Shown here in pieces: positions 4,935-20,744 of a stretch of 43,882 bases of DNA. The translations under genes were made by a program, and so were the position numbers. Source of the DNA: Candidatus Saccharimonadota bacterium (GTDB lineage: Bacteria; Patescibacteriota; Saccharimonadia; Saccharimonadales; UBA10212); assembly GCA_013815775.1 (NCBI GenBank), contig JACDFN010000001.1, forward strand, positions 1 through 43,882, written 5' to 3'. Positions within the stretch are counted from its first letter, which is position 1. Each line of letters opens with the position of its first letter. Under the pieces are notes generated by a model. The model saw only the letters and a list, made by a program, of their open reading frames with translations, made no database searches and was not told the DNA's origin.

Positions 4935-5348
4935 CTATCCGTTGGCTATTTTACTGAGCGTAAACCTCACCAGGACCTGCGCTAAGGCTACTATAATCAA
5001 ACCTATGATGGCATAGAGTATGGTGTTTTTAGCGCTTGTGACACTCGTGTCGTTTCCACCGCTTGTTATGTAGCGCAATCCACCGACTATTATCATAATG
5101 ACGGCAATTACCCCTACAATGGCTGAAAGTAAGTTAATGACAGACCGAATTAAGTCGTTTATTTTTTCAGTGGCATCGCCGCTACTACTACAGTCTCTAG
5201 TTGGATTTTCGCTGAATTCTAGTTCAGCACCGGTGCAAAGTCCGCCAATAATATCGTTCTCTTGGGCATATGCCGGAACAGCCTGAGCAAAATTAAAGCC
5301 TAAGACTATAGCTATTGAGGCCAGGAAACCAGTTATTCTATACATCAC
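4935..5348 (-). CDS. VirB2/TrbC-like T4SS pilin 1
   Basis: Signal peptide ending AYA; two TM helices joined by GGLRYITSGG..AKNTILYAIIGL. Confidence 0.88.
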   Translation of the reverse strand: MMYRITGFLASIAIVLGFNFAQAVPAYAQENDIIGGLCTGAELEFSENPTRDCSSSGDATEKINDLIRSVINLLSAIVGVIAVIMIIVGGLRYITSGGNDTSVTSAKNTILYAIIGLIIVALAQVLVRFTLSKIANG

Positions 5349-5352
5349 TTTT

Positions 5353-5361
5353 ATTTTACCA
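5353..5361 (-). promoter_or_regulatory. Extended -10 immediately upstream of pilin 1 (possible leaderless mRNA)
   Basis: TG-G-TAAAAT 4 nt before GTG-ATG; no SD. Confidence 0.4.
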
Positions 5362-5387
5362 GGTTTTACTTCTATAATTGCGCTAAG

Positions 5388-5816
5388 TTAGGATGCTATC
5401 GATGTGGTGTTGCTTAGAACAAACCGTACTATTACCTGGGACAACGCAACAATGATTAGGCCGATTAAGGCATAAAGTATGGTGTTTTTAGCGTTCCCAA
5501 CTTTAGTGCTATCACCGCCACTTGTTATGTAACGCAAACCACCAAATATAATCATAATAACGGCTATGACTCCAATGATGACCGACAATATATTAACTAT
5601 GCGGCGCAGTAAATCGCTGAAGTTGCCCGTTGAGGTATTAGGATCTTCGCAGGTTGCTTCGCCTTCTGCGATAACTAACTCCTGAGCACCTTTACACAGA
5701 CCTCCCTGTATCGGCCCTGTGCCTTGTGCATGCGCGACTACTGGCACCAGAGTAGGTACAGAAAACATAAGCGCTGAACTCAAGATTAACAGTTTGTTTT
5801 TAATTTTTTGAAACAT
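5388..5816 (-). CDS. VirB2/TrbC-like T4SS pilin 2 (candidate major pilin)
   Basis: Signal peptide ending AHA; GGLRYITSGGD..AKNTILYALIGL; AAAGGA SD. Confidence 0.9.
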   Translation of the reverse strand: MFQKIKNKLLILSSALMFSVPTLVPVVAHAQGTGPIQGGLCKGAQELVIAEGEATCEDPNTSTGNFSDLLRRIVNILSVIIGVIAVIMIIFGGLRYITSGGDSTKVGNAKNTILYALIGLIIVALSQVIVRFVLSNTTSIAS

Positions 5817-5843
5817 TTTAATTCCTTTGGTTATTTATCTTAC

Positions 5844-5871
5844 AGTATATACGCTCTTATACCACAGTCAA
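5844..5871 (-). promoter_or_regulatory. Putative internal sigma70 promoter of pilin 2
   Basis: TTGACT-N16-TATACT on the minus strand in the 88-bp gap. Confidence 0.6.
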
Positions 5872-5904
5872 CACGCTTATGGCAACGAATGGCAGTCATC
5901 TACA

Positions 5905-6393
5905 TCAATCTGGCTGAGTACCGGGTTTAATCCCTCCACTCGAAGGGGGCGGTGTGGTGTTGGGCTGGCTAGAACTCTTCGATTTAGGGGGAGGGGTTGT
6001 ATCCGTTGCGGTACTTAGCACAAATCTAACTATTACCTGAGCTAGCGCTACTACGACCAGCCCTATAGCCGCATACAATATAGTATTTTTTGCGTTGGCT
6101 ACTTTGGTTGTATCTCCGGCGCTGGTTATGTACCGCAGCCCACCAAACATAATCATAACTACCGCCACTACTCCAATAATTACCGAGAAGACGTTTAAGC
6201 CGCTTTCTATGGTACTGTCCAACTTTTTGGGGTCGTTGCTGCCACTTTCTCCGGCACCAGCATTTGCACCGCACTTAATCTGTTCGGCCGTAGTGGTGCC
6301 CGGGCACTGTGCGTAAACGGAACCTAATAAAAAACTGAACGTAAAAATAATAGTAGCTATAAAAACCAATACTTTATTTAATAGTCGATGCAT
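5905..6393 (-). CDS. VirB2/TrbC-like T4SS pilin 3 with Pro/Ser/Thr-rich C-terminal tail
   Basis: Signal ending VYA; GGLRYITSAGD..AKNTILYAAIGL; TTPPP-containing tail. Confidence 0.88.
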   Translation of the reverse strand: MHRLLNKVLVFIATIIFTFSFLLGSVYAQCPGTTTAEQIKCGANAGAGESGSNDPKKLDSTIESGLNVFSVIIGVVAVVMIMFGGLRYITSAGDTTKVANAKNTILYAAIGLVVVALAQVIVRFVLSTATDTTPPPKSKSSSQPNTTPPPSSGGIKPGTQPD

Positions 6394-6398
6394 AAGCT

Positions 6399-6821
6399 TT
6401 ATTGAAGCACCCTGTCGGTTATAAATCTAGTCATAGCCCATGCTAGTGCAATAATAACCAGTCCAATAAGCGAATAAACAATGCGCCTTCTGCCTAAAGC
6501 TACTGCTTCGGTGCTTCCGCCTGAAGTTATTAAATTAAAACCACCCAGTAATATTATGAAAATTGCAAATACGGCAGCTACTGAGGCAATGATGGTGGCA
6601 ACATCGTTAATTGTTTCTGTTATGGGGTTAGAGGTGCCGCTTTTAGTTTCTTCGTTGTCTTTGCAAACCGAGCTTTCCGCAGACGAGTTAGTCTTAGTAT
6701 CTTTGCAGCTTCCCTTAAAAAAATTGAACTGGGCGCTAACGGTAGGGGCACTTGCAAGCAGTACCGCGCTGTATAAAAACAAGGATAGAATAACTAGGTT
6801 TATTCTATTTCTAAACATCAA
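6399..6821 (-). CDS. VirB2/TrbC-like T4SS pilin 4
   Basis: Signal ending VSA; GGFNLITSGG..GRRRIVYSLIGL. Confidence 0.85.
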   Translation of the reverse strand: MMFRNRINLVILSLFLYSAVLLASAPTVSAQFNFFKGSCKDTKTNSSAESSVCKDNEETKSGTSNPITETINDVATIIASVAAVFAIFIILLGGFNLITSGGSTEAVALGRRRIVYSLIGLVIIALAWAMTRFITDRVLQ

Positions 6822-7105
6822 TTTCCAACCCTTGTAATCACAAAATTAACAATAGCAACGGCCAGGGCTGCGATTACTAATCCGACGGCTATATGTAAAA
6901 GCCTCATCTTTGACTGGGCAATTTTAGCTGGATCACCTTGGGCAGTTATATAACGAAGACCGGCAACTACAAAAAGCAATACCGCCAGCGCCCCTAAAAT
7001 TACATAGACGAGTGCAAAAATCTTATCTATCGTCTTGCCGTCTGCTTTTGTACCCGGCAGATTGCTGTTATCTAAAAGACCGGCTAGATAATACAGTCGC
7101 TTCAT
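6818..7105 (-). CDS. VirB2/TrbC-like T4SS pilin 5 (short, no classical signal peptide)
   Basis: AGLRYITAQGDP.KIAQSK..LLHIAVGL between two TM helices; ATGA overlap with pilin 4. Confidence 0.85.
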   Translation of the reverse strand: MKRLYYLAGLLDNSNLPGTKADGKTIDKIFALVYVILGALAVLLFVVAGLRYITAQGDPAKIAQSKMRLLHIAVGLVIAALAVAIVNFVITRVGN

Positions 7106-7108
7106 TTC

Positions 7109-7507
7109 TTAACCAATTGCCCTTCCAATGAACGATACAACTACAGTGGCCATCATCACAATGACCAGACCGAATATTGCGTTCAAAATTCTCTTTCTGG
7201 CAGAAGCAGCTTTCTCTGGATTTCCATCAGATGTCATGTAGGCGACGCCGGCTATAATTATGTATATTACCGCCAATATACCAGCGGCGTAGAGCATCAT
7301 GTCTATGATGGCGAAAGCTATAGCCCAAACATCATCAGGAAATTTTACTTTGGGGGTACAATTTCCAAGGCCATCGCGTTCGCCGTCCTTAATGTATTTC
7401 CACCAACGCGGCAAGCCAAAAAACGGATTTTTAGACTGATCGAGGTCACAAGCATCACCGATATCAACATTATTTATATTCGGGAGCTGCGCTAAAAACC
7501 ATTGCAT
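7109..7507 (-). CDS. VirB2/TrbC-like T4SS pilin 6 (FFGLPRWWKY type, no classical signal peptide)
   Basis: AGVAYMTSDGNPEKAASARKRILNAIFGL between two TM helices. Confidence 0.85.
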   Translation of the reverse strand: MQWFLAQLPNINNVDIGDACDLDQSKNPFFGLPRWWKYIKDGERDGLGNCTPKVKFPDDVWAIAFAIIDMMLYAAGILAVIYIIIAGVAYMTSDGNPEKAASARKRILNAIFGLVIVMMATVVVSFIGRAIG

Positions 7508-7509
7508 CG

Positions 7510-7974
7510 CTAATCAAACACTCCCCCCGGTATTAGCCATTGCAAAAATGCCGATACGAATATAAATGCTAGCAGGGCAATCAGAGCGTTAGTTATGTGG
7601 TTTTTGGCTTCGGTGACAGCGTTTGGGTTATCGCCCGCCATAATGTAACGAATCCCTCCAAATATTATCATCGCCACTACTACCACGCCAACCCCTATGC
7701 TCAAGAAGTTAACTAGCAGCTGTAATTTTTTTACCACAGCATTCTCCTTTAAACATTCCTGGAGTTTCTTAGTGGTATTAGCATCATCGCACTTCGGGTC
7801 ACCAATGCTAGTGGACTTCTCGGTTTTAGCTGGGGGAGGAGTGGTGCCACCACTTCCGCCTCCACCAGGGTCAGGAATAGCAAGTGCAACCGCTGGGGAT
7901 ATAAATAACGCTAAAGCAAAACATGCAGTCGCTGCCATCACGATTCGTCTAAAATGAGTTTTTATCTTTTTCAT
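7510..7974 (-). CDS. VirB2/TrbC-like T4SS pilin 7
   Basis: Start reassigned to ATG 7974 (MKKIK..., signal ending ALA); GGIRYIMAGDNP..AKNHITNALIAL. Confidence 0.85.
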   Translation of the reverse strand: MKKIKTHFRRIVMAATACFALALFISPAVALAIPDPGGGGSGGTTPPPAKTEKSTSIGDPKCDDANTTKKLQECLKENAVVKKLQLLVNFLSIGVGVVVVAMIIFGGIRYIMAGDNPNAVTEAKNHITNALIALLAFIFVSAFLQWLIPGGVFD

Positions 7975-7998
7975 ACGCAGTGGAGAAATTCTTAAGTG

Positions 7999-8077: not shown

Positions 8078-8100
8078 TCATCAGATACAGAACCCATAAA

Positions 8101-10893
8101 ATGAAAACGAACAAAAAAATATTCTTTGGGCTATCCTTCTTTATTGCGTTAGGGTTTTTTGTATTAGGCGGACAAAAGGTGCAAGCTGCTCCAGTCAACG
8201 ACGATAGTTTTAGAGATACCTTGTATGTGATTACCGCTCTTGAGAATGATCAACCCAAAACTATTACCGTAAAGATAGCTGGCAAAGATTTTACTTTTAC
8301 CGATAAAAATACAACCGATAAAGACAATAACCTAAAAACCACCACTAATGATAGCTTTATCTGCGAGCAAAAAAACCCAACAACCGGTATTACCATAACC
8401 GGGAAACCGCAGCCAATACCGGGTGGTGGCAGCTCTTACGCCGGGTTTATTACTGTCAATTATATGAATAATACAGACGAAAAGTGTACTAATAACGCTG
8501 ACGAAATTGTTGTTAAGCTACCAATTAACCCCGTCTATAACGCGCCTGGGACAGGGGGCGGAGCTGGAACCGTGGGTAATGACGAAGCGCCCGATGTTTG
8601 TTACATTGATTCCGGTGGTTTTCCGCTAGCATGGGTTTTTTGCCCGCTTTTAAGCGCCGGTAATGCTTTAGCTAACGAAATGCTCAATCTTTTTCAGGAC
8701 CAGCTCTCATTTACTGTGAATCAAGACCTTGGCAACCAGGATAGCCAAAACAGAGTAAAGCTCGCCTGGTCACTTGTAAAAAACATATCAAGTGCCGGTC
8801 TCGTCATCATCATGTTAATTATGGTCTTTTCCCAGGCTGTTGGCAGCGGCTTGTTCGATGCCTACACTATTAAAAAAATTCTGCCGCGACTGGCAATAGC
8901 GGCCATTGTCATGCAGTTGTCTTGGGCGCTTTTTGGCTTTGTAGTAAACCTGGTTAACGACATAGGAAACGGCCTAGCGGCCTTTATGTTCGCCCCGTTT
9001 GGGGGCAGCGATAACCTAGAACTTGGCGCCCTTCTGGCCAACGCAGGTATAAGCGTTGTAGAAGCCGCAGCCATAAACTGGGTGGCCCTTATAGCCGTAG
9101 TTGGCTTGGCTGCCGCCGCACTCCCGACGACACTATTCCTAGTTTTTGCAGCCATAGTAGCCCTCTTCACTGCTTTAGTGACCTTAGTTCTTCGAAAAAT
9201 AATAATAATAATGTGTCTTATATTGGCACCACTGGCGCTTTTGGCCTGGATTCTACCCGGAACTCAGCGCTACTGGAAGCTATGGGCGGATAATTTTACG
9301 AAGGTGCTGGTTATGTTCCCGATAATAATTGCCATTGTGGCGTCTGGTAGAATCTTTGCCTACGTGGTGGGTACACAGGATAATAATAAATTTCTAAGCC
9401 TTATCCTAGTGCTGGTTGGCTTTTTTGGGCCTTTATTTTTACTGCCAAAAGCCTTTAAATGGGGTGGCTCGGCAATGGCCTATGCAGGCAATGCAGCCTC
9501 GAGCTTTGGAGGAAATGTAAAAAAAGTGAGCGAAAAGCCAATAAAAGAATACGGGCAGCTACGACAAGGTAGCATTGCCAAACAATATAATCCCGATGCC
9601 AGTAGAGGCAGACGGGCGCTTAGCCGTATCGGTTCTGGACACTTCCTTCCCACCGAACGTTCCCGTCGGCTAACCATTCGCGCCGGTGACCAGTGGGCCG
9701 CAGACCGTAATGAAGAAGCCACCGCTTATGCCGGCAGAGTATCAGAAATAGCAATGAGTAAAGGCTACACGGCATATGAGCTAGATAAAAACGGCAACCG
9801 GATCAAGGATGCCAACGGCAAAGATGTAATAGCTAAAGATAAAAATGGTAATGAAAGAGTTTGGACTCCTGGGGTAGGCGCAGCTAAGCAAGCTCTTATA
9901 GACCTGGCCGGTACCGACCAAACTTCTGACCATGCGAAGCGAGCCGGGCAGGCCGCAGCCAAACAATTGATTGATACTAGTTCATGGATTGAGCTGCAAG
10001 GCAGTACAATTACGAGAGGCGCTAACGCCGGGAAAAGGATATTTGACGCAGGAGCCAACGAAATCTGGGAGAAAACACTTACCACCAGCCCTGAACACTA
10101 CTCTAAAACTCTTAGGAGCAGACCGGATCTTGTGCCACATATGCTCCAATACACTTACGGTGATAATAAGGTTAAGGACCTCTACCCAGAAGAGTTTGCT
10201 GGCATTGATTCCAGCAACCACGATGCAGTGGCGGCCAAAGCAGCCCAGGTCCGTCAACGTAGAGGCTTAAACAAGAATCAAAGGCTCTCAGATGCAGACA
10301 GAATGATAATGTCCATAAAAGACCAGATGAATCCCGAAGATCTTTCCAGCGTGGCTCAAGGCTTCTATCAGGAGATTGCTCGGCTGGGAGATGCCCAAAG
10401 AGGTGGCAACCCTGTTGACGGCCAACGGGTCTCTAACGCTCTGCACGGAGTACTCAAGGGTCTGGCCGATACGGGGCTTCCCGGGCAGCAGGTAATCGCC
10501 AGGTTATCGGGTGGTAGCTTAGGAGAAGACGTTAATAAAGCGCTGGCGAATGGTACAGCCAGTAATAACATTGATGATTATCTTCATCATTCTCAAGCTT
10601 CTGGTAGGGGACGCCCCGCACCTCCACCTGCCAACCAGCAAACAGCTGGAACTCAAGCAGCAGCAACTCCAGGCTCATCTCAAGGCGGTCCGATAGGTGG
10701 TGACCCCAGTGTATTAAAAATTGACCACGATGCTCTCGCTGGAGCCGTAGCCAGTGCTTTCAAGGAAGTTTTGCGTACCAGCCCCCAAACCGTTTTTCAT
10801 CCTACCGAAGGTACGTCTACTTATTCTCCGCCTTCGGCTCCAGCCGAAAAACCTCCTGAGCCAGAACCGCCTCAGCAACCCCCTAGCGCATAA
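8101..10893 (+). CDS. Extended VirB6/TrbL-like polytopic T4SS membrane protein
   Basis: Start reassigned to ATG 8101 (signal ending VQA); extracellular N-domain, multi-TM core with RKIIIIMCLILAPLALLAWILPGT..W..W, long hydrophilic C-tail; upstream of PrgI and VirB4. Confidence 0.8.
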   Translation: MKTNKKIFFGLSFFIALGFFVLGGQKVQAAPVNDDSFRDTLYVITALENDQPKTITVKIAGKDFTFTDKNTTDKDNNLKTTTNDSFICEQKNPTTGITITGKPQPIPGGGSSYAGFITVNYMNNTDEKCTNNADEIVVKLPINPVYNAPGTGGGAGTVGNDEAPDVCYIDSGGFPLAWVFCPLLSAGNALANEMLNLFQDQLSFTVNQDLGNQDSQNRVKLAWSLVKNISSAGLVIIMLIMVFSQAVGSGLFDAYTIKKILPRLAIAAIVMQLSWALFGFVVNLVNDIGNGLAAFMFAPFGGSDNLELGALLANAGISVVEAAAINWVALIAVVGLAAAALPTTLFLVFAAIVALFTALVTLVLRKIIIIMCLILAPLALLAWILPGTQRYWKLWADNFTKVLVMFPIIIAIVASGRIFAYVVGTQDNNKFLSLILVLVGFFGPLFLLPKAFKWGGSAMAYAGNAASSFGGNVKKVSEKPIKEYGQLRQGSIAKQYNPDASRGRRALSRIGSGHFLPTERSRRLTIRAGDQWAADRNEEATAYAGRVSEIAMSKGYTAYELDKNGNRIKDANGKDVIAKDKNGNERVWTPGVGAAKQALIDLAGTDQTSDHAKRAGQAAAKQLIDTSSWIELQGSTITRGANAGKRIFDAGANEIWEKTLTTSPEHYSKTLRSRPDLVPHMLQYTYGDNKVKDLYPEEFAGIDSSNHDAVAAKAAQVRQRRGLNKNQRLSDADRMIMSIKDQMNPEDLSSVAQGFYQEIARLGDAQRGGNPVDGQRVSNALHGVLKGLADTGLPGQQVIARLSGGSLGEDVNKALANGTASNNIDDYLHHSQASGRGRPAPPPANQQTAGTQAAATPGSSQGGPIGGDPSVLKIDHDALAGAVASAFKEVLRTSPQTVFHPTEGTSTYSPPSAPAEKPPEPEPPQQPPSA

Positions 10894-10932
10894 GAGTTGC
10901 CAATGACGCTTATGTATCAGATACTGTAAGCT

Positions 10933-11925
10933 ATGGCTATTTATAAGGTAATTCAGGATATTGAGGCCGAGGACAAGCTTGTTGGACCGCTAAGCCTGAA
11001 GGGTTTTATTTACGCAATTATTGCAATGACCCTGGCCTATCTTAATTTCCGTATATTGCTTAGTACCGGTTTTAACCCTTTGGGTATTCTAATCGTATTA
11101 ATATTATCCTTTCCAATGTTTCTTTTTGGGGTTTTAGCCTCGCCACTAGGGCGCGACCAGCCCACGGAAGTGTGGCTGTTGAGCCATGTACGTTACTTTT
11201 TGAAGCCCCGTAAACGAACCTGGGACCAAGCCGGAGTAATTGAACTGGTAACAATCACCGCTCCAAAGAAAGTGCAAAGGCAGCTGACTAAAAATTTTAG
11301 CCCCAACGAAGTAAATAGTCGCCTCCAAGCTCTTGCCATGACGCTGGATAGCCGGGGTTGGGCCGTAAAAAACGTGAATATAAACCTTAATCCTACCCAG
11401 GGATATAGCGCTCAAATAATTCAACCAGGTTCCGACAGACTAGTAACCGCCAGCAATATGCCTCAAGACGTTTCATCTTTGGATATTCAAGCATCTGAGG
11501 ATATTCTTGACGAACAAAATAACCCAACCGCTCAAAATTTTGCAAGGCTTATGCAGCAAGCCGAAACAAACAGAAGGATTCAAACTGTTAGCAGGGTTAA
11601 TGACGCTAGAGGGGGAGTGGTCCAACAACCGGTGGATTTTAGCTTTCTGGATGAACAACAAGTAGCCACAGAAAGTTCTGGGCATACCAGGTTTGTTACT
11701 CACACGATAGTTGGGCCTGAACCCAAGCAAGTGAGCCGTATCATTCCTGTTCCCCCGCCAAACGCCATTCCTAAGGTGACAGGCTTAGCGCAAGCTGATA
11801 AAATTGAACTCATAAAGGCCGCTAAAAACGATAAGGTTTCCACGCTCGCTAAACTGGCCAATCGTCGGGCCCGGGTTGTTCAAAACGGACCCAACGAAGT
11901 GGAAATTACCCTTCATTCAGAATGA
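10933..11925 (+). CDS. PrgI family (VirB3-like) protein with C-terminal extension
   Basis: YKVIQDIEAEDKLVGPLSLK.F, two TM helices, P.E.WL....Y..KPRKR.W. Confidence 0.85.
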   Translation: MAIYKVIQDIEAEDKLVGPLSLKGFIYAIIAMTLAYLNFRILLSTGFNPLGILIVLILSFPMFLFGVLASPLGRDQPTEVWLLSHVRYFLKPRKRTWDQAGVIELVTITAPKKVQRQLTKNFSPNEVNSRLQALAMTLDSRGWAVKNVNINLNPTQGYSAQIIQPGSDRLVTASNMPQDVSSLDIQASEDILDEQNNPTAQNFARLMQQAETNRRIQTVSRVNDARGGVVQQPVDFSFLDEQQVATESSGHTRFVTHTIVGPEPKQVSRIIPVPPPNAIPKVTGLAQADKIELIKAAKNDKVSTLAKLANRRARVVQNGPNEVEITLHSE

Positions 11926-11959
11926 ACTTAAGTTAAACCAAAACGGGTGGAAGAAAAGC

Positions 11960-12781
11960 ATGAATCCTAGCCAACAGATAAATCCCAGTCAGATGCCAAA
12001 TAGTCAGGCTTTTCCTGTTGCCGTCCAGACAGGCAAGACTTCTCAGCCAACTAACCCAAATAGTACTCAAAATAGCCTCCAGATTAGCGAAATACGCGAC
12101 GGCATTGGCATTATGAGCGACGGGTCTTTTAGGGCTGCGCTGATGTGTAAGTCTATAAATTTTGACCTGATGAGCGACCAGGAGCGGGAAGCGGTGGAAT
12201 TTAGCTACCAAGGGTTTTTAAATTCGCTTTATTTTCCAATTCAGATTTTCATTCGTAGTCAGAAAGTAGACCTCCGCCCCTACCTAGAAAAGCTTGATAA
12301 AACCAGGACCGAGCAAGCTAACATGCTACTGGCCATGATGATGGATGACTATATTGGCTTCTTATCTGATGTTGCCCAGCAGACAAATATAATGGATAAA
12401 AGGTCTTATGTAATAATCAGCTACCCAGACCCTGATGAAAATTTTAGAAGTGCGATTAAACAAAGTACAGGATTTTTTAATGGCATGCTTGAGTTGTTCC
12501 GGGGTAACAAGCCTCCCCATGTAGTCATCAATGAAAGTGTTTTAGAAAATGCTAAAACCGAGTTAAAGAATCGTGTTCAAGCTGTTATGCAGGGTCTGCA
12601 GCAATGCGGCGTTCAAAGTTTGCCTTTAGATACACAGGAATTAATTGAACTATTCTACGGTGCCTATAATCCAGATACGGCTACCAGACAACAGCTTAAA
12701 AATTTTAACGACTTAAATGCCCCCATTGTCACTAAGGCTGCAGCTCCAGCGCCCGGCGCTACCACGGGGGCAATAAGATGA
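11960..12781 (+). CDS. VirB4-associated cytoplasmic protein (resembles VirB4 N-terminal/TrsD-like modules)
   Basis: Start reassigned to ATG 11960; STQNSLQISEIRDG..SINFDLMS..E..A....YQGFLNSL.FPIQI; ATGA overlap with VirB4. Confidence 0.7.
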   Translation: MNPSQQINPSQMPNSQAFPVAVQTGKTSQPTNPNSTQNSLQISEIRDGIGIMSDGSFRAALMCKSINFDLMSDQEREAVEFSYQGFLNSLYFPIQIFIRSQKVDLRPYLEKLDKTRTEQANMLLAMMMDDYIGFLSDVAQQTNIMDKRSYVIISYPDPDENFRSAIKQSTGFFNGMLELFRGNKPPHVVINESVLENAKTELKNRVQAVMQGLQQCGVQSLPLDTQELIELFYGAYNPDTATRQQLKNFNDLNAPIVTKAAAPAPGATTGAIR

Positions 12782-14703
12782 AACTTCCTTTCAACAAGAA
12801 GCCGCCCGTGCCTGAAGATGCCGGGTTCAATAATCAGATGCTTGAGCAGCAAGAGGTGAATACGGCATTTCAGAAGGGCGTAACGGCTCTGCGGGATTTT
12901 ATCGCTCCTAGTTCTCTTGAATTTAATAGCAATTATTTTCAACTGGGTACACGCTATGCGCGCTCATATTACGTTTATGGCTACCCCCACCAGGTATACA
13001 CCGGTTGGTTATCCGGCATGATTAACCTGGATGAAATAGTAGACCTATCGATGATAGTTCAGCCCGTAAAATCCGAGGTGGTACTTAATAACCTTCGCAA
13101 AAAGGTTAGCCAGCTTGAAGCAGGCATCCAGATAGACTCCGAGAAAGGTCGAGTTCGTGACCCCGCTAAACAGGCAGCCATCCTAGATGCCGAGGAGATG
13201 CGCGATAAACTTCAGGTGGGAGAAGAGCGCTTTTTCCGCTTTGGGCTTTATTTCACTCTATACGCCAACTCCATGGAGGAGTTAGAAATTGTAAGCCACA
13301 AAGTGGAGTCCTTGCTTGGACAGCAACTAATATATTCCAAGCCTGCTAGCGCCCAACAAGAACAAGCCTTTAACAGCACTCTCCCGCAGTTTACAGATCA
13401 ACTCCAAATATACCGTAACCTCGACACCGGAGCTATAAGCACCAGTTTTCCATTTACTTCTGCTGACTTAACCCAGGATAACGGCATTCTCTACGGAATA
13501 AACATGCATAACTCTGGGTTAGTTATTTTTGACCGTTTCTCTCTAGAAAATGGAAACAGCGTAGTCTTCGCTAAGTCCGGAGCCGGTAAGAGCTTTACGG
13601 TAAAGCTTGAAGCTCTACGGAGTATGATGTTTGGTACCGATATTTTTATTATCGACCCAGAAAACGAATACCAAAAAATGTGCGACGCCGTAGGTGGGGC
13701 ATATGTTCGCTTGAGCTTAAACAGTACAACGCGTATAAACCCCTTCGACTTACCGCAGGTCATAGATACCGATGAAGCCGATAACGCCCTTAGAAGCAAC
13801 CTGATAACATTGCATGGATTACTTAGGCTTATGATGGGCGGCGCACAGGCCCAAATGCTAGGTAACGGCACGACTGCCACCATGCCGGCCCTAAGCCCAT
13901 CAGAAGAGGCTGATCTTGACGCCGCTTTAATAGAAACCTACGCTAAGGCGGGTATCACTCCAGACCCTCTTACCCACGGTTCGCTACCGCCAACGGTTAA
14001 CGATCTTTACGACACCCTGCTTCATATGGGCGGCACTGGCCCGCAGCTAGCCCAAAGGTTGCGCAAATATACGACTGGTACATTTGCCGGCATTTTCAGT
14101 CAACAGAGCAATGTTAACGTCAATAACCCTATGGTAGTTTTCAACATTCGCGATCTGGAAGACGAACTAAGGCCGGTAGCTATGTATATAGTCCTTAACT
14201 ATATTTGGAACAAAACAAAAGCTGACAAGAAACGACGACTATTAATCGTTGATGAGGCCTGGCAGTTGATGCGCTATGAAGACAGTGCAAACTTCCTTTT
14301 CTCTTTGGCCAAGCGTGCTCGAAAATATAACCTCGGTATAACTACCATTTCGCAAGATGTTGAAGATTTTATGGCATCAAGGATGGGTCGAGCAATAGTG
14401 GCTAACGCCAGCATGCAAATGCTTCTCAAACAATCGCCTTCGGCGGTAGATGTACTGGCTGATGTATTTAAGCTAACCAGCGAAGAAAAGAAAAGACTTA
14501 GCCAATTCCCGGTTGGTCAAGGCTTGTTCTTCGCCGGCCAAAGCCACGTACACATCCAAGTAATCGCCAGTCCGACTGAATCTGGCTTAATAAGCACTAC
14601 CCCGAGCCCTACTCGACGACCAGCCGTGAATACAAACCCCCAAAACGAACCTACTTATTCCGATAATCTACCGCCAGAGTCTCAGCAGGCCACCGGAGCA
14701 TAA
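12778..14703 (+). CDS. virB4: VirB4/TraE-family T4SS ATPase
   Basis: Walker A AKSGAGKS, IIDPENEY, INPFD, Walker B LLIVDEAW, KRARKY..TTISQ. Confidence 0.93.
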   Translation: MKLPFNKKPPVPEDAGFNNQMLEQQEVNTAFQKGVTALRDFIAPSSLEFNSNYFQLGTRYARSYYVYGYPHQVYTGWLSGMINLDEIVDLSMIVQPVKSEVVLNNLRKKVSQLEAGIQIDSEKGRVRDPAKQAAILDAEEMRDKLQVGEERFFRFGLYFTLYANSMEELEIVSHKVESLLGQQLIYSKPASAQQEQAFNSTLPQFTDQLQIYRNLDTGAISTSFPFTSADLTQDNGILYGINMHNSGLVIFDRFSLENGNSVVFAKSGAGKSFTVKLEALRSMMFGTDIFIIDPENEYQKMCDAVGGAYVRLSLNSTTRINPFDLPQVIDTDEADNALRSNLITLHGLLRLMMGGAQAQMLGNGTTATMPALSPSEEADLDAALIETYAKAGITPDPLTHGSLPPTVNDLYDTLLHMGGTGPQLAQRLRKYTTGTFAGIFSQQSNVNVNNPMVVFNIRDLEDELRPVAMYIVLNYIWNKTKADKKRRLLIVDEAWQLMRYEDSANFLFSLAKRARKYNLGITTISQDVEDFMASRMGRAIVANASMQMLLKQSPSAVDVLADVFKLTSEEKKRLSQFPVGQGLFFAGQSHVHIQVIASPTESGLISTTPSPTRRPAVNTNPQNEPTYSDNLPPESQQATGA

Positions 14704-14709: not shown

Positions 14710-17700
14710 ATGGCAGAACCAGCACGCCAACTAAACGAACGGGAGGGTAATACTCACGATAACCATAAGCCGGGACAAGTTTTTGAGCCAAGAATAGTTG
14801 AGGGTAACGGTGGAGGCGACTCCATACCACGAGGAAAATTAGTTGCGGCAAAAGAACCCACATATGATCAGCCTGGCAATGAATCATCCACTCCTGACAA
14901 GCCTAATTTAAAAGCTCTAGAGGGTGGCGGAGAACCTTCAAGGCCAAAGGACAATCTACGCAGTAATGCTGAGGATGAAAATTCAACATCAGAAAATTTA
15001 CTAAAGGCAGAGAGTAGTGCAGAAGTAAGCCCTCAACGACACGAAAACCCGGTAGGTGATGGCTATAAATCTGCTGGCAAGCAAAAAGGACTGATGTCGC
15101 GTTTTACTAGTCGCCGGGCCTTAATTGGTATAGGTGCCTTAGGAAGTGCCACGATAGTAGGCGCTGTTCTGCTATTTAGTTTTTTGAATATTTTTAAACT
15201 CGATGGCTTAATGAGCAATGTTACAGCTAAGGCCTTCCTGCGGAGCAGCGCCGTTTTAGACGGAAGGTCTAGCAAATGGGTTTCGGCCTACATTCAGGCC
15301 AGGATGCTTGATATGGGCGACAGCGCTGACATGAACAATAATGAAAATATACTGTTTCGGAGCAATAAGGTTGACACAAACAGCCCTTTCACAGACTGGT
15401 ACAAAACCCTTCGAGCATCGAAATTTGAATTGGAGGTCTTTGAAAAACAAGGTATCAAGTTTACTTCAGCAGTAACGGCTGATGGCAAGATTAGGCCTGG
15501 CCGCATAGACATAAAGGGTCAAGACTCCATACCTATCAAAGTAAGTGCTAGTGATTTTAGCAAAATTAGCAGCGGAGACATCGAAACAATAAACAAATAC
15601 CAAACCTACGTTGATACAGAAGTGTTCAAAAATGATAAAGCTGCCCGTAAAGCTATCAAGCAGGTGGTTAAAGAGAATACTCTCTGGCACCAAATTTATC
15701 AGCGGCGCCACCTGCGTAAATCTATCCAAAACATGACAGGAGTAAGAGATTGGCGATTTTTTGAGCAGACTAGAGATAAAGCAAACGAAAGTGGTGCTGC
15801 TGTACGAGCTAAAGTGGTCGATAAAATGGTACCTGACGCTACACTGCTGGGCAGGGTTACCCGTTGTTTGTTTGGAGTCGAGCAGTGCAATCCCAGCCGC
15901 GACGTTGCTGATCCCAAAAACCGAGCGACCGTTCAAGCCAAATACGGTACCGATAAGGCAAAAACTAAAGAGGAAATTAAAAAAGAACAGGAATTTTTAG
16001 CTCAGCTGAAAGACAAAGGTATTGACCCAAGTGATTTATCGGAAGCATTAAAGAAAATTTTAACCAGGGCTAATCTTATTACTAACTTGCTTTTCTTGCC
16101 AGATACCCTAGATATGATCGCCTTTATTGATGACAATCTAGAAAAACTTGTTAAGTTAGTTGTGCTGGCAAGAGGGGCGCAAGCCGCTGGTTTGTATCAA
16201 GAATTCTCAACAGCTAACGACCAGCTAAAAACCGGTCAAGTCACAGGGGAAGAAGTGAATCACTTTATGCAAATACTCAGCTCGGCCGGCAGTAGCGACG
16301 GATGGGCAAAGGTTGTAGAGGGTAAGGGAGACCCCGGCACCGCCTCTTCGACTGGCAAGTGTAGCAGAGAAGAATTAGCCAAGGCTGAAAAACAACCCAA
16401 TAAATATCAGAAAGAGTACGCTCTCCTATGTGCCGATGAGCGTATAGGTAGTACCGCTAAAGCACAACAAATTCAAGATGAATATAAAGCTACGGTTGGC
16501 ATCATTGTTGGGCCAATCGCAGATGCCTGGACGGGAGCTAAAGGCAATATTATAACAGGAACGTTCATTCGGGCAATTCAGTGGTTCAGCGGATTAATTG
16601 CTAGTGCACTTAGCGGTGTTTTTGGAGCAATCCTGGATATTTTAGGTCTTAAAGATAATGTCGAGAAAGCAATATTCTGGGTATTCGGTAAGCTTTCGGC
16701 TTTTATAGGCATCAACATAATCTCCGGTAACGAATCCGGAGGGAAATTTTATAACTGGCTAGTGCAGGGTGGTGCATATACCGCCGAGTCAGACGCTCGC
16801 CAAAAGGGCGCAAGCCTGACTAACGGCGCCAGCCTCGCCTCAACTCAGCTAGCTATTAAGCAACACCAGACCGACAGGCAGGAAGATATGAGTTTATTTG
16901 ACCGAGTAGCTTCGCTAGATAATCCAGACTCATTGGCATACAAAAGCTTAATTGCCGCTGATAGCTTACGATCAAACCCAAGCGCCGCCATGGCTTCGAG
17001 CTTAAAAAATATGTGGCGGGGACTTGGTAGCAGTTTTTCTACGATTCTTGTAGGGCAGTCGAGTGCGGCAACATTAGATGGTTATGCGGCCAGCAAGTTC
17101 GCCGGTATAGAGACCTATGATTATCCGCCTAAGTGTTCGACATTGAACCCAATACTATCTAAGCCCATAGATGGGACTAACGCATTGGACGTTTTTGCCA
17201 ACCCCTCAAAATATAATCTTAAAAACGCGCCTATTGGGTTATCGCAAGATGAAATTAATTCACTCAATGACTGGGACGTAATGACAAACAGCGATGAGTT
17301 CTATAATACAATCTACGGGATAATCGGCGAGAATACCGAAGATGCCGATGACATTGCTGTTCAGATCTATAACTGCCACCTGCTAGACACAGCTATTCGC
17401 GGCAGTTTAGGTTACCTATACGGCTACAGTAAGGACAATGGTCTAGAAGATAACGTTGCTAGCAGCCCGCCACCTGGCACCACTCCGCCGCCTCCAGGCG
17501 ACCCGACTTCTCCAGTTACCGGCACCGCGCAACAAATTGCCAAGCAGATATTGGCAGCAGCTGCGGCTGGGAAAATAAAGTTTAATGTACTATTTGGCTC
17601 AGATATATTTGACGGCTCAACTCCCGAGCAAAACGTTGAACAAACGGCGGCTGGCCTGCCAGCTAAGACCACCTCTACCTGCGGAAGCAGTGGTCGCGGG

Positions 17701-17970
17701 GCGCAGGCTCCTAGTCCAGTAGTTGCCATGGATCTAAACCTATTAAAGTTTATTCTGGAGGTCAGCCAAGGCCAAAATATTCAAATTAATGCTTTGGCTG
17801 GGCAATGCCATAGTTCGGGGTCTAGGCATTACGAGGGTAAAGCAGTTGATTTCGGATGCCCTTTCAACGCTTCTGCCGCTGACGCCGTAGCAGGAAAATA
17901 TGGGGTTTCTAGAAATTCTGAAAATTGCGCTCAAAACGCCCACTACCATTATTCTGTGGGGGGAAGCTAA
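14710..17970 (+). CDS. Large membrane-anchored T4SS-associated protein with C-terminal M15-like Zn-peptidase domain
   Basis: Disordered N-terminus, TM at ~aa 138-160, further hydrophobic region, Pro linker, then SRHYEGKAVD (SxHxxGxAxD) and terminal HYH. Confidence 0.75.
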   Translation: MAEPARQLNEREGNTHDNHKPGQVFEPRIVEGNGGGDSIPRGKLVAAKEPTYDQPGNESSTPDKPNLKALEGGGEPSRPKDNLRSNAEDENSTSENLLKAESSAEVSPQRHENPVGDGYKSAGKQKGLMSRFTSRRALIGIGALGSATIVGAVLLFSFLNIFKLDGLMSNVTAKAFLRSSAVLDGRSSKWVSAYIQARMLDMGDSADMNNNENILFRSNKVDTNSPFTDWYKTLRASKFELEVFEKQGIKFTSAVTADGKIRPGRIDIKGQDSIPIKVSASDFSKISSGDIETINKYQTYVDTEVFKNDKAARKAIKQVVKENTLWHQIYQRRHLRKSIQNMTGVRDWRFFEQTRDKANESGAAVRAKVVDKMVPDATLLGRVTRCLFGVEQCNPSRDVADPKNRATVQAKYGTDKAKTKEEIKKEQEFLAQLKDKGIDPSDLSEALKKILTRANLITNLLFLPDTLDMIAFIDDNLEKLVKLVVLARGAQAAGLYQEFSTANDQLKTGQVTGEEVNHFMQILSSAGSSDGWAKVVEGKGDPGTASSTGKCSREELAKAEKQPNKYQKEYALLCADERIGSTAKAQQIQDEYKATVGIIVGPIADAWTGAKGNIITGTFIRAIQWFSGLIASALSGVFGAILDILGLKDNVEKAIFWVFGKLSAFIGINIISGNESGGKFYNWLVQGGAYTAESDARQKGASLTNGASLASTQLAIKQHQTDRQEDMSLFDRVASLDNPDSLAYKSLIAADSLRSNPSAAMASSLKNMWRGLGSSFSTILVGQSSAATLDGYAASKFAGIETYDYPPKCSTLNPILSKPIDGTNALDVFANPSKYNLKNAPIGLSQDEINSLNDWDVMTNSDEFYNTIYGIIGENTEDADDIAVQIYNCHLLDTAIRGSLGYLYGYSKDNGLEDNVASSPPPGTTPPPPGDPTSPVTGTAQQIAKQILAAAAAGKIKFNVLFGSDIFDGSTPEQNVEQTAAGLPAKTTSTCGSSGRGAQAPSPVVAMDLNLLKFILEVSQGQNIQINALAGQCHSSGSRHYEGKAVDFGCPFNASAADAVAGKYGVSRNSENCAQNAHYHYSVGGS

Positions 17971-17971
17971 A

Positions 17972-19231
17972 ATGTTGGCAGAAAAAATTATATCCGCTAG
18001 TAAGTTTCTGATACTAATCCTATTTATCTGCACTATAATTTATCCGAACATTGCTGCTGCTCAGGGCAGTACTTATAGAAAATTACAAACTCCTTTCTAT
18101 GACCCAAACGGCTCCCAGACCACTTCCTGCGGAAGTGCTAGTTTAATTGGATCAGAAAATGCCGAGAAGGTTTTTAACTTTTTTAGGGGCAAGGGAATGG
18201 AAGCATGGCAAGCCGCCGGAATCATCGGTAATATGACCGCAGAATCTGGTGTTGAACCCCAGCGTCTTCAGGGAACTCCAATAGATGTAAAAACACCGGC
18301 TGAGTCTTTTTCCGGTAGCCTTGGCTGGGGCATCGTGCAGTGGACACCTGGCAGCAAATTTATCGATACCATCAACCCTATAAGCAAGGCTAACGAACTT
18401 GGGGTGCAGCTAGAGTTTTTATGGAAACAGCTAGAGGGCAAAGGGCCGCTACCCGAGAAACAAGCAGGTGATGAACTTAAAAGAACTACCGATGTAGAGA
18501 GCGCTACCGTTGCCTTCCAAGGAACAGAGCCCGGCGGAACCGTGCAGTACGAGGGTAAAAGCTATGGTCCCTATACTGGTTTTGAGAGACCGGCGGATAA
18601 GCAAGGAAGTATTGCTTTTCGGATTGACACCGCAAAAAGCATATTTGCTAAGTACGGGTCAAATGATGGAGGCGGTGCAGCGGAGTGCGTGTTAGGTGGC
18701 AGCTTAGGTATTTCAGGAGACTGCCAGGCAAACGGCATAGTCTATGAGGGTCAATATACCCAGCAGCAGTTAAGAAAAATTTTTGGCCCGCCGGTCCGTG
18801 ACACTAAGGTAAATCTGGTTAACATCGACTTCTTCGGCAGTAAAATACCAGTACATAAACTAGTTGCTCCCTGCCTCAAAGCCATAGAGCAAGAGCTAAT
18901 AGCTAAAAATGTAAGCTACAGACCCGAAGCCTTAAAGGGTGGTTTCTGGTGTATAAGAGAAAATGACGGCCAAATAGGCGACAGCAGCTACCATGTATAC
19001 GGAGCCGGGTGTGACATCAACCCCCTTACCAATAATTACTTCAGTGATGGCAAGGCAAGACCCTACACCCCCAACTGTCCAATTGCAACGGGGGTGATAG
19101 ACAGTGGCAATTGTTATGATTTACCCCCGGATTATGTGTCGACCTTTGAGAAATATGGGTTTGCGTGGGGTGGTAACTATAGCTCTATAAAAGATTACAT
19201 GCATTTTGAGTGGCATGGGGTAAAACCATGA
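17972..19231 (+). CDS. Secreted bifunctional peptidoglycan hydrolase: phage-tail-lysozyme-like + M15 peptidase (VirB1-like role)
   Basis: Start reassigned to ATG 17972; AAGIIGNMTAESG, GWGIVQWT, QLEFL, FERP; SYHVYGAGCDIN and FEKYGFAWGG..DYMHFE. Confidence 0.88.
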   Translation: MLAEKIISASKFLILILFICTIIYPNIAAAQGSTYRKLQTPFYDPNGSQTTSCGSASLIGSENAEKVFNFFRGKGMEAWQAAGIIGNMTAESGVEPQRLQGTPIDVKTPAESFSGSLGWGIVQWTPGSKFIDTINPISKANELGVQLEFLWKQLEGKGPLPEKQAGDELKRTTDVESATVAFQGTEPGGTVQYEGKSYGPYTGFERPADKQGSIAFRIDTAKSIFAKYGSNDGGGAAECVLGGSLGISGDCQANGIVYEGQYTQQQLRKIFGPPVRDTKVNLVNIDFFGSKIPVHKLVAPCLKAIEQELIAKNVSYRPEALKGGFWCIRENDGQIGDSSYHVYGAGCDINPLTNNYFSDGKARPYTPNCPIATGVIDSGNCYDLPPDYVSTFEKYGFAWGGNYSSIKDYMHFEWHGVKP

Positions 19232-19274
19232 TTGATCCAAGAATAAAGTGTAATAAAGCTGGGAGTTTACGCTC

Positions 19275-20744
19275 ATGAAGAAAAAAGCCATTTTAGTACT
19301 CTCGGCTATTGTTTTCGTACTGGTTATCTACGGCCTATATAGCACCGCTTTTATTGAAGTATCCGTTACCGGCCAAGGTAGCTCCGAAATTTCCTATAAA
19401 TTTATAAACCAAGATACTTCTAAGGAGAAGGTGATTAAGAGCGGCTCTACTAAACTAAAAACCAGAGTGTCTAAGGGAAATTACGAGATTTTGGTCAAGC
19501 AGGGTGAAGTCAGTTATGTATCGATAATAAAAGCTGCAGGATTTCTAAAAACTTCCTCGATTAGCGCTAGCCTTAAGCCGGAAAAGAGCCGGCAATTCGT
19601 GGGCAATAACCCCGGTTCATGCATGAACTACAACGACAGTATACTTGTTACGCATACCTGTGGAACTACCTACAACAAGGTCAACGTCCACGTCCCGGCA
19701 AACTCTTCTTTACCAACCTATATTGCCCAAAGCTCAAGCCTATCCATATTCGGCTATTTGGGAGGTGTAGTGAACACTAGCGAAGGCAGTCTGGCTTTGG
19801 TCCGCGCTCTAGGAGATGACGTTAGCAGCTACTTTATCCACCGTATCGACCAAAGCCTTAAATCACTTGGTTCAACTGCACTGCCAAACCTTGACGTAAA
19901 CAAATTCTACGTCATTAAATCCTATGGGAGTGGATTCATAATTTATGATACTTCTTTCCAACAGGTACTTATTTATCCTAGCAGAGCTGCAAAACCGATG
20001 ACGGTTAAGTTTGATACCCCGGGTGAAAAGAATTTAATTCTCAAAGATATAGACTTTCGAAGCAATGGGTTTACTAAGCTATACACTACAGATGACGGCT
20101 CTAAGGATGCCCGGTCGGAAGTGGTGGCTGTCCGAGAAGGGAAATCCAAGCACTATGTTTTTAATAAAAAATTTCTACAGGCTAAACTATGTGGGGAGCG
20201 GTCTTTGTGCGTAGTCACAGGCGAGCGGCTCGAGGTCTATGATATAGCGCAAGAAAAACCGAAGTTTTCTTTTGCCCTTAATGGGACGGAGCTGGTGGGA
20301 ACTTCCGGCAAGAACATCCTAATCAAACATGGCCGAGGGATAATAAACTTGGACCTGGACAAACGCAGCGGGTTTATTGAATTTGGCCTTGATGATTATG
20401 ATTACTGCGGAATACAAGAAGATGCTGGAACGTATTTGCTCTGTTTAATTAACAATAAGAATAAAAAGGTTGCTCTGCGCATAGACACGGGCTCCGACAA
20501 CACTGACAGTGTAGATAAAAAAATAAACCAGCTCCTCAATACGCCGGAGGTTTCTGATGTATCTATCTACGGTAAGTTTATCTTTATATCTCCTAACCTG
20601 GGGGAGCTTGTGTACGACAGTAGAACTAACGGCTACGGATACAACCCTGCCACCAAAAAAGCTGCTAATGACAAAATAAACCAGGAGATAGATCGGTTAG
20701 GAATAGACAGGAGAGTATATTCTATTACCAACACGATTCCCTGA
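19275..20744 (+). CDS. Membrane-anchored beta-rich extracellular protein (PEGA-like N-domain, probable beta-propeller)
   Basis: N-terminal TM; V.KGNYEILVKQG PEGA-like strand pattern; repeated beta-strand blocks and Cys pairs. Confidence 0.65.
   Translation: MKKKAILVLSAIVFVLVIYGLYSTAFIEVSVTGQGSSEISYKFINQDTSKEKVIKSGSTKLKTRVSKGNYEILVKQGEVSYVSIIKAAGFLKTSSISASLKPEKSRQFVGNNPGSCMNYNDSILVTHTCGTTYNKVNVHVPANSSLPTYIAQSSSLSIFGYLGGVVNTSEGSLALVRALGDDVSSYFIHRIDQSLKSLGSTALPNLDVNKFYVIKSYGSGFIIYDTSFQQVLIYPSRAAKPMTVKFDTPGEKNLILKDIDFRSNGFTKLYTTDDGSKDARSEVVAVREGKSKHYVFNKKFLQAKLCGERSLCVVTGERLEVYDIAQEKPKFSFALNGTELVGTSGKNILIKHGRGIINLDLDKRSGFIEFGLDDYDYCGIQEDAGTYLLCLINNKNKKVALRIDTGSDNTDSVDKKINQLLNTPEVSDVSIYGKFIFISPNLGELVYDSRTNGYGYNPATKKAANDKINQEIDRLGIDRRVYSITNTIP

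Follow-up and report, generated by a model that had tools for sequence, protein, structure and literature searches.

An origin-linked type IV secretion system in an uncultured soil Saccharimonadales genome and its variable half

The window considered here, i.e., the first 43,882 bases of contig C1, comes from the 747,099-base, four-contig, 98.99% complete genome of an uncultured soil bacterium whose public relatives are labelled as Saccharibacteria or Saccharimonadales metagenome-assembled genomes. Beside the replication genes recF, dnaN and dnaA, it carries a type IV secretion system (T4SS) that is almost certainly the soil Saccharimonadales copy of the chromosomal, vertically inherited T4SS of Saccharibacteria, and the counterpart, by gene order, of the region SEML1_0004-0019 of the cultured relative Southlakia epibionticum ML1. 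This system has already been published for Southlakia (Wang et al. 2023, PMC10633639) and for Patescibacteria (Quinonero-Coronel et al. 2025, PMC12102498). The present copy is a rediscovery and not a new kind of system, which agrees with the initial annotation of this DNA; the comparative points that we report on its coupling ATPases, its pilins and its variable half are modest additions. In the interpretation that we favour, with essentiality taken from the cultured relative, the machine would serve growth on a host and not conjugation, and its cargo would be exported protein, the same apparatus being also a conduit for host material. As a whole, this combination of identity, proposed working and role is the best explanation that we can offer, and we regard it as probable.

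The locus is laid out as two divergent transcription units, as seen from the listing of open reading frames (ORFs) and from Pfam: an array of seven pilin genes on the minus strand (4935 to 8097) and a packed operon of seven genes on the plus strand (8032 to 20744), in the order virB6-like gene, prgI, trsD, virB4, a scaffold-hydrolase gene, a lysozyme/M15 hydrolase gene, and a gene for an anchored beta protein. The inventory first drawn up for this region (seven pilins, VirB6, PrgI, a VirB4 partner, VirB4, two hydrolases and a beta protein) was recovered in full at the positions given below, with VirB6 as its weak member. The last stop codon of the operon ends at 20744 and that of recF begins at 20752, so that the gap between them (20745-20751) is 7 bp, as originally noted.

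The distribution of the locus was followed in two sets of genomes: a first set made of the genome itself plus 40 other genera from 17 families of the order (41 genomes), and a public set made of the 80 best loci by VirB4 similarity, the two sharing at least one genome. VirB4 was found in 41 of the 41 genomes, with 74-88% identity across the other 40 genera, and, in a sample of 61 genomes from the whole class, in 58 (60-84%); two of the three that lack it have a completeness of 88%. The order pilins, VirB6, PrgI, TrsD, VirB4, variable segment, recF, dnaN and dnaA, whose comparison across relatives had been suggested along with the initial annotation, is kept in 19/19 loci of relatives with long contigs. 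Likewise, in the 54 public loci that extend 9.5 kb or more beyond virB4, recF is found in 53, dnaN in 52 and dnaA in 48, and the one locus without recF still has dnaN and dnaA. Gene order and position beside recF-dnaN-dnaA therefore both match those of the chromosomal T4SS of Saccharimonadia.

The same picture is given by the distances between proteins. Over 67 loci, those of VirB4 follow those of DnaN (Mantel r 0.66, a value reached in none of 999 permutations), and the mean p-distances over 20 genera chosen by taxonomy increase from VirB4 (0.196) to DnaN (0.365), TrsD (0.376), RecF (0.494), PrgI (0.558) and VirB6 (0.743). Hence, the motor evolves at roughly half the pace of the sliding clamp, and the machine displays a gradient of conservation, with very conserved cytoplasmic parts, intermediate membrane parts and hypervariable exposed parts. 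On these sequence comparisons, the locus is fixed and vertically inherited, in line with the initial description of a domesticated system fixed beside oriC and distinct from an integrative conjugative element (ICE), for which the presence in 41/41 genomes, the recF downstream in 53 of 54 loci and the Mantel correlation all speak.

The constant machine and its pilin array

The VirB4 ATPase (641 residues, 12778..14703, plus strand) is of the monoderm (CD1110) type without the N-terminal domain: it reaches 356.7 bits with the NCBIfam model NF045971 against a cut-off of 325, its alignment covers positions 182-732 of the 752 of the model, and it matches P-loop_TraG, AAA_10 and CagE_TrbE_VirB in Pfam. 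A free-standing VirB4 N-terminal domain is encoded just upstream as the TrsD-like protein (301 residues, 11876..12781, plus strand), which matches the TrsD model NF041427 (28.2 bits) and, on the CD1110 VirB4 model, positions 2-122, with scores that fall well short of the NCBIfam cut-offs; its gene overlaps virB4 by 4 bp, and its median identity is 64% over 79 loci. Before it stands the gene of a PrgI/VirB3-like membrane protein (330 residues, 10933..11925, plus strand), with two hydrophobic segments, a match of residues 5-96 to PF12666 (36.1 bits versus 27), and a C-terminal extension of about 230 residues. The likeness to Gram-positive conjugation machines, proposed from the start, is borne out by a VirB4 that passes the CD1110 cut-off, by a PrgI over its cut-off and by the TrsD-like partner. 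Regarding the MPF-FATA class of such machines, the monoderm-clade VirB4, PrgI and the wall hydrolase pass their cut-offs and the VirB6-like member is weakly supported, while the absence of VirB2-type pilins that characterizes the class does not apply here, with seven PF18895 pilins over cut-off. Elsewhere on the contig, outside the window (C1:80139-81245), a 449-residue open frame has a weak match to the VirB4 ATPase (23% identity, E 8e-9) and may be a HerA/VirB4-like P-loop protein.

The first gene of the operon (8101..10893, plus strand, with the ORF open from 8032) encodes a 953-residue polytopic membrane protein, which is likely an extended VirB6/TrbL-like protein as judged from models and from neighbouring protein clusters. 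It has about six hydrophobic segments and no Pfam or NCBIfam match of its own, but its nearest clusters in the protein Atlas, where its entry starts at residue 24, are Saccharimonadota proteins with TrbL_3 in 78-95% of their members (score 0.95). In an AlphaFold2 (AF2) model built from 39 relatives (predicted local distance difference test, pLDDT, 64.6), the helical membrane core is confident at about residues 170-470; Foldseek matches it to TrwI/VirB6 of R388 with a probability of 1.00, a template modelling (TM) score by target of 0.42-0.45 and E 0.035-0.1. The C-terminal half of the model resembles helical-repeat proteins. Searches of solved-structure sequences with this protein and with the 1086-residue scaffold discussed below, using both single sequences and family profiles, returned nothing below E 0.07, and the full-length models of the two had no Foldseek match at E <= 0.001. 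The virB6-like gene is a single copy in 71 of 75 loci and is split into two adjacent pieces in the other four.

The seven minus-strand ORFs of the array all exceed the gathering score of the PF18895 T4SS_pilin family (33.7-57.6 versus 26.6 bits), and each has a two-helix hairpin, preceded in most of them by a signal peptide. The four distal genes, pil1 to pil4 (4935-5348, 5388-5816, 5905-6393 and 6399-6821; 49.1-57.6 bits), form a VirB2-like group of variable copy number, in which the DNA of pil1-3 is 68-72% identical over 185 nt. They are followed, toward virB6, by pil5 (6818..7105, 52.3 bits), a short pilin of 95 residues without a signal peptide; by pil6 (7109..7507, 47.5 bits), with a cysteine-containing N-terminal region; and by pil7 (7510..7974, 33.7 bits), which adjoins virB6 and whose ORF extends to 8097, with Met42 as the likely start and a signal-peptide-like segment after it. 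With the probable starts of pil7 (Met42), of the wall hydrolase (Met25) and of the VirB6-like protein (residue 24), the apparent overlaps between these genes vanish.

To compare arrays, 365 pilin ORFs were ordered by their distance from virB6 and typed by the best-matching pilin of the window, with arrays cut by the end of a locus still counted from the virB6 side. The pil7 type occupies position 1 in 68 of 70 arrays, the pil6 type position 2 in 62 of 64 and the short pil5 type position 3 in 40 of 63, whereas the positions beyond are a mixture of pil1-4 types in varying number. With three types holding constant places throughout the order, the pilins are more than a set of interchangeable variants. 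Each of the six Southlakia pilins is called essential in its own right, with polar effects possible (PMC10633639), and, together with the fixed positions, this suggests a division of labour among pilins and not mere antigenic variety. The fixed positions are not described in the portions of the published accounts (PMC10633639, PMC12102498) that were compared here.

The variable half beyond virB4

Between virB4 and recF, the segment measures 4.8-8.8 kb and its layout is constant: a large protein, a second one of 370-1000 residues, and one to three smaller ones. In the window, the large protein is a membrane-anchored helical scaffold of 1086 residues and of the SEML1_0007 family (14710..17970, plus strand), with a proline-rich linker and a C-terminal module that resembles LAS/M15 zinc peptidases. 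It has no match of its own in Pfam or NCBIfam. Helices dominate its AF2 model (pLDDT 61.7); the hydrophobic segments fall at 138-168, 629-647 and 654-672, and besides the proline-rich linker there is an alpha/beta domain, modelled with confidence, around 1009-1086. This last domain holds the strings SRHYEGKAVD and HYH, and its fold is matched to Hedgehog N-terminal domains and to the peptidase domain of pneumococcal VldE, with probabilities of 0.54-0.97 and E of about 1-3; the matches to Hedgehog/DD-peptidase folds have probabilities of 0.91-0.97 and E of about 1. The Southlakia protein at the same position has a Hedgehog/DD-peptidase domain annotated at 951-1105 (PMC10633639). With this annotation, the motifs and the fold matches, the earlier statement that the locus encodes two proteins with hydrolase domains holds.

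An iterated search with hidden Markov models (HMMs) recovered the scaffold family in 81 of 81 loci. One cysteine is invariant in 42/42 and 38/38 aligned members, and was used as the landmark to delimit the tails: 27 of 80 members end within 80 residues past it, and the other 53 carry 92-894 further residues. The 53 long tails fall into at least 21 BLAST clusters; that of the window protein is a singleton, and its closest relative (49% identity over 736 residues) has a tail of a different cluster. Among the Pfam modules of the 80 scanned members are VanY (11), M23 (6), M14 (3), CHAP (2) and GDSL lipase (2), along with Exo_endo_phos (2), Beta-lactamase2 (2), Amidase_2 (1) and Phosphoesterase (1). 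The gene after virB4 is thus, as far as sequence tells, a constant membrane scaffold with exchangeable C-terminal enzyme modules. This pattern is not described in the published texts, within the same bounds as for the pilins, and one literature search aimed at it found nothing further; the texts do mention essential lysozyme and peptidase homologues after virB4 (PMC10633639, PMC12102498).

The next gene (17972..19231, plus strand, within a 443-residue ORF open from 17900) encodes an exported two-domain wall hydrolase, with Phage_lysozyme2 (89.3-89.5 bits) and Peptidase_M15_4 (57.4-57.5 bits) domains; Met25 is its likely start, and a signal-peptide-like segment follows. This position is also variable, as the 86 other segment proteins of at least 370 residues carry 20 families, mostly muralytic, among them Phage_lysozyme2 (38), M23 (12), CHAP (9), NlpC/P60 (9), C39_2 (9), Amidase_3 (8), GDSL lipase (8), SLT_2 (6) and Glucosaminidase (5). 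The terminal gene of the operon (19275..20744, plus strand) is variable as well: its 489-residue product, anchored by one N-terminal hydrophobic segment, is probably a beta-propeller, its structural neighbours in the Atlas being beta-propellers and PEGA-domain clusters of the same phylum at TM 0.42-0.60, values to be taken as leads only, and its family is present in 9 of 81 loci.

All this leads us to a broader, tentative idea, which we think less likely to be right than wrong in its entirety. The half beyond virB4 would be a polymorphic module for breaching the host envelope, in which variable enzymes (M15/VanY, M23, M14, CHAP, amidase, GDSL lipase, and members of endonuclease/phosphatase and phospholipase C families) are displayed past the invariant cysteine of a three-pass scaffold, are paired with a second variable hydrolase and are matched to the envelope of the host, so helping to set which hosts can be used; three fixed pilins and the variable ones would build the tube, and an essential, gyrB-linked coupling ATPase, described in the next section, would be the "missing" motor. 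The scaffold with swappable modules is, at any rate, a testable candidate for a determinant of host-envelope specificity.

Coupling ATPases, proposed working and role

The initial annotation had listed VirD4 among the absent components. None is encoded in the window, as stated, but the genome has two VirD4-type genes, on contigs C2 and C4, whose products resemble type IV coupling proteins (T4CPs): a protein of 907 residues on C2 (TrwB_AAD_bind, 28.3 versus 20.5 bits) and one of 960 residues on C4 (TraG-D_C, 22.3 versus 22 bits), 38-39% identical to each other. The latter closes a coupling operon (C4:55699-64059, outside the window) that encodes proteins of 116 and 142 residues followed by the 960-residue coupling-type ATPase, and that lies upstream of gyrB-gyrA on the same strand. 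Orthologues of the C4 type occur in 38 of the 41 genomes of the first set (61-84% identity) and those of the C2 type in 33; moreover, all 61 genomes of the class sample have a C4-type match (43-69%). The position of the C4-type operon immediately before gyrB-gyrA, on one strand with them, recurs in 14 of 14 further genomes; no gene separates it from gyrB in seven of them, and in the other seven, as in the present genome, two minus-strand surface-protein genes lie in between.

In Southlakia, SEML1_0142, a protein with a TraM-recognition domain preceded by 0140 and 0141, is called essential with 11 of 114 insertions kept, and SEML1_0293 (TrwB_AAD_bind) is called non-essential (PMC10633639). The printed statement that the t4cp homologue of Southlakia is not essential (PMC12102498) fits, therefore, only one paralogue, SEML1_0293, and printed statements of an absent or dispensable coupling protein overlook the second one, which is present in every class genome searched, beside gyrB. 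This adjacency is, within the bounds already given, also not described in the published accounts (PMC10633639, PMC12102498).

Two locations of the system can then be set side by side, with the T4SS abutting recF and the coupling operon abutting gyrB, the two sides of the usual recF-gyrB junction. These two genes are neighbours in many bacteria. As a speculation, both positions could be the scar of a single ancient insertion at this junction, split later. A contiguous ancestral block of T4SS and coupling genes was looked for and rejected, being contiguous in none of the 16 genomes that have both on one contig.

The working that we propose for the machine, and hold with some, though not strong, confidence, is the following. 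TrsD and VirB4, held at the membrane by PrgI, would power assembly at the VirB6 channel, and the pilins would build a tube in which three specialized types are fixed beside virB6 and a variable number of major-type pilins lies beyond. The anchored scaffold and the exported hydrolase would cut the peptidoglycan of the cell's own wall to allow assembly, and, as the exchangeable enzyme modules suggest, the same enzymes could also cut the host envelope at the contact site. Finally, the unlinked coupling-type ATPase operon beside gyrB would probably gate the substrates.

As for the role, it is drawn from Southlakia, where the T4SS (SEML1_0006-0019) is reported as essential (Wang et al. 2023, PMC10633639): by transposon insertion sequencing (Tn-seq), SEML1_0004-0011 and 0013-0019 are called essential at both T1 and T2, and the NTF2-like 0012 is dispensable (PMC10633639). 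A 2025 review regards it as the first T4SS essential to its own bacterium (PMC12857230). It is the only T4SS so reported, and the way in which a very large radiation of bacteria lives on other cells probably depends on it.

Several points weigh against this account. The essentiality is borrowed from one relative by Tn-seq, its HMM calls are smoothed, with SEML1_0004 and 0011 keeping 10-46 insertions and hundreds of reads in spite of being called essential, and polar effects within the Southlakia operon are possible (PMC10633639). The VirB6 assignment is weak: it goes back to the Foldseek match at E 0.035-0.1, and Pfam TrbL matches 2 of 39 family members. A VirB8-like protein (PrgL/ConB, NTF2 fold) has no Pfam or NCBIfam match in the locus, where the structure search covered part of the domains, and no separate gene stands at the position of the dispensable NTF2-like SEML1_0012 of Southlakia. 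The fold matches of the C-terminal domain of the scaffold are weak (E of about 1), and its two strings are a putative metal-binding motif of the LAS/M15 zinc-peptidase kind. Like enzymes of the VirB1 type, the hydrolases may have no target but the wall of the cell itself, and the diversity of the modules points to the wall of the host only indirectly. For the coupling ATPase, a part in the work of the T4SS is no more than a proposal between unlinked loci: in each of the 16 class genomes with both on one contig, 80-300 kb separate virB4 from the coupling operon.

Other roles have to be set against growth on a host by protein export combined with a conduit. The one that survives best, possible and yet doubtful to us, is an import conduit, in which pilus and channel penetrate the host and supply the epibiont with material from the host cytoplasm (RNA, nucleotides, perhaps lipids). 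For a different cultivated member of the phylum, a 2026 preprint describes tubular structures, possibly T4SS pili, that reach into the host, together with uptake of host RNA, and a review speculates on uptake through the pilus (PMC12857230); the scaffold modules that are not muralytic (Exo_endo_phos and GDSL lipase in two members each, Phosphoesterase in one, among the 80 scanned) would also suit such a function. However, the preprint itself calls the mechanism of RNA uptake unresolved, no T4SS of this ancestry is known to import RNA, and an essential coupling-type ATPase such as SEML1_0142 is typical of export machines; the content of the window does not bear on the direction of transport.

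Far less probable is an apparatus for DNA uptake or competence linked to comF, like ComB of Helicobacter or Ced of Sulfolobales, an idea that goes back to the initial annotation, which had read import of DNA from this linkage. The comF-like gene is 0.8 kb from the pilin array here and in the same place in Southlakia, and it follows hsp20 in 8 of the 11 loci with enough flank to judge. VirB4 weakly matches the models of CedB (48.7 bits versus a cut-off of 700) and CedD (26.2 bits versus 600), at the P-loop level only. The comF of Southlakia (SEML1_0021) is non-essential, with 56-57 insertions kept, while the T4SS genes are called essential (PMC10633639), and deletion of comEC abolishes competence and not viability, competence being attributed to type IV pili (PMC12857230). 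With comF and comEC dispensable in the relative and the T4SS essential, and with comF beside hsp20 in only 8 of 11 loci, the step from comF linkage to DNA import fails.

The weakest alternative is an ordinary integrated conjugative element, or its decaying remnant, exporting DNA. VirB4, TrsD, PrgI, VirB6 and the wall hydrolases are indeed the core of monoderm conjugation machines, and two T4CP-like genes exist in the genome. However, none of seven relaxase families (PF03432, PF08751, PF01076, PF02486, PF13814, PF03389 and PF07514) has a match at E <= 0.1 in the whole 98.99% complete genome, so that the description of the system as relaxase-less stands, an unrecognized type of relaxase being possible; PF02534 likewise has no match in the genome. 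No att-like flanking repeats were found at the locus, and the single tyrosine recombinase of the genome is on contig C4, again as first reported for integrase and att repeats; serine recombinases were not searched genome-wide. A conjugative element would be expected to bring a relaxase, a linked coupling protein, and an integrase, att repeats or a patchy distribution, and the locus has none of them; neither a linked relaxase or integrase nor patchiness, which the initial annotation had named as the signs of an ICE, was seen, the cluster being at the same chromosomal site in every relative searched, with a VirB4 that tracks DnaN at about half its rate of divergence.

A truly ICE-like cluster in some relatives looks different. 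A second VirB4, 37-39% identical to that of the window, occurs in 4 of the 41 genomes, each with a T4CP-like gene within about 3 kb, and as a fragment in a fifth. The one such cluster that was annotated (473-14604 of its contig) holds two pilin-domain genes, one of them a pilin-domain fusion, PrgI, a TrsD-like gene, a VirB4 37% identical to ours, a CHAP hydrolase and a T4CP that exceeds the cut-off of PF02534; its further genes are split reverse-transcriptase ORFs, ParB and a serine recombinase, and no relaxase was recognized. From its gene content, this compact cluster looks like an ICE, an element-borne version of the same kind of machine. For the locus of the window, a conjugation role is very unlikely, and the conjugative-element reading is close to refuted.

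Flanking genes and relation to known systems

The genes around the T4SS are not parts of the machine. On the recF side are the fixed neighbours recF (20752-21828), dnaN (21857-22948) and dnaA (23197-24585), all on the minus strand and identified with Pfam, as are rnpA and yidC, also in the window. The intergenic region between dnaA and rnpA (24586..25086) is the probable oriC, with three DnaA-box matches of one mismatch clustered at 24652-24755; over the entire window, such boxes total 8 versus 10.1 expected, which is not above chance. A 96-residue ORF without family matches (22962-23252, minus strand) covers the spacer between dnaN and dnaA and runs into the 3' end of dnaA; it is unlikely to be a gene. 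Beyond the origin (26424-43597), a jag/KhpB-like gene is followed by a surface-glycan locus that encodes three GT4 glycosyltransferases, two enzymes of the GDP-mannose-dehydratase family, a Wzm/Wzt-type ABC exporter, an FkbM methyltransferase, a protein of 655 residues that bears a mannose-binding lectin domain, a UDP-GlcNAc 2-epimerase and a GT2.

On the pilin side are hsp20, coding for a small heat-shock protein (4378..4851, plus strand; HSP20, 65.4 bits), at the same position as SEML1_0020 and detected in 32 of 54 loci with at least 7.5 kb upstream; the comF-like phosphoribosyltransferase gene (3457..4152, minus strand; Pribosyltran, 36.6 bits, with DZR_2 and PRTase_3 below their cut-offs); and two tRNA-Ser genes (1042-1127 and 1316-1408). 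Between these and comF, a 606-residue protein (1521-3341, plus strand) has one N-terminal hydrophobic segment and only a sub-threshold CBM60 match; near its position, Southlakia has an STT3-like glycosyltransferase instead.

The closest known system is that of Southlakia, with which orthology was inferred from gene order and domains, not from sequences. Its order is dnaA, dnaN, recF, two small exported proteins, a lysozyme-like/cysteine-proteinase protein, a 1113-residue protein with a C-terminal DD-peptidase fold, VirB4, an unnamed 293-residue protein at the place of the TrsD-like gene, PrgI, a 998-residue protein, the NTF2-like protein, a TrbL/VirB6-like protein of 1088 residues, six pilins, hsp20, comF and tRNA-Ser (PMC10633639), and this is the order of the window read leftwards, from dnaA to tRNA-Ser, with no relaxase and no linked coupling protein in the portion of the published account compared. 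The differences lie in the number of pilins (six versus seven here); in the interval between prgI and the pilins, with three genes (0011, the NTF2-like 0012 and 0013) versus one large polytopic protein here; in the hydrolase modules, which are lysozyme plus M15 here and two lysozyme-like domains plus a cysteine proteinase there; and in the terminal gene, which encodes the 489-residue beta-propeller-like protein here versus two small Ig-like proteins in Southlakia.

Among Patescibacteria, the T4SS has been described as having an MPF-FATA-related VirB4, TrsD and PrgI, with VirB6 nearby and VirB2 arrays of 2-11 genes, as lacking a relaxase in most genomes, and as being located near dnaA/dnaN, most of the T4CP homologues being encoded a long way from virB4 (Quinonero-Coronel et al. 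2025, PMC12102498). All these features are common to the present locus, and the VirB2 pilins are a known departure from monoderm systems. Two differences emerge: the same study places the comF linkage in class ABY1 and not in Saccharimonadia, and it takes the pilin arrays for variation of possible use in host adaptation, whereas three pilin types are fixed in position here (PMC12102498).

With the monoderm conjugation machines, such as those with the CD1110 VirB4 of the clostridial conjugative transposon CTn and with TrsD/TrsE of the staphylococcal plasmid pGO1, the locus shares the type of VirB4, the TrsD-like N-domain protein, PrgI, the polytopic VirB6-like protein and the two-domain wall hydrolase after the ATPase; ConE-ConG-CwlT of ICEBs1 is likewise a machine of this kind. 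Unlike them, it has no relaxase, linked coupling protein or integrase, it has VirB2-type pilins, and it is chromosomally fixed in every relative searched. Lastly, the bactericidal T4SS of Xanthomonas and Stenotrophomonas offers a likeness of logic only, as an anti-bacterial T4SS with envelope enzymes that join a constant part to a variable catalytic one. That system is a diderm VirB/D4 machine with soluble effectors recognized by VirD4, whereas here the variable enzyme would be carried by a three-pass membrane scaffold.

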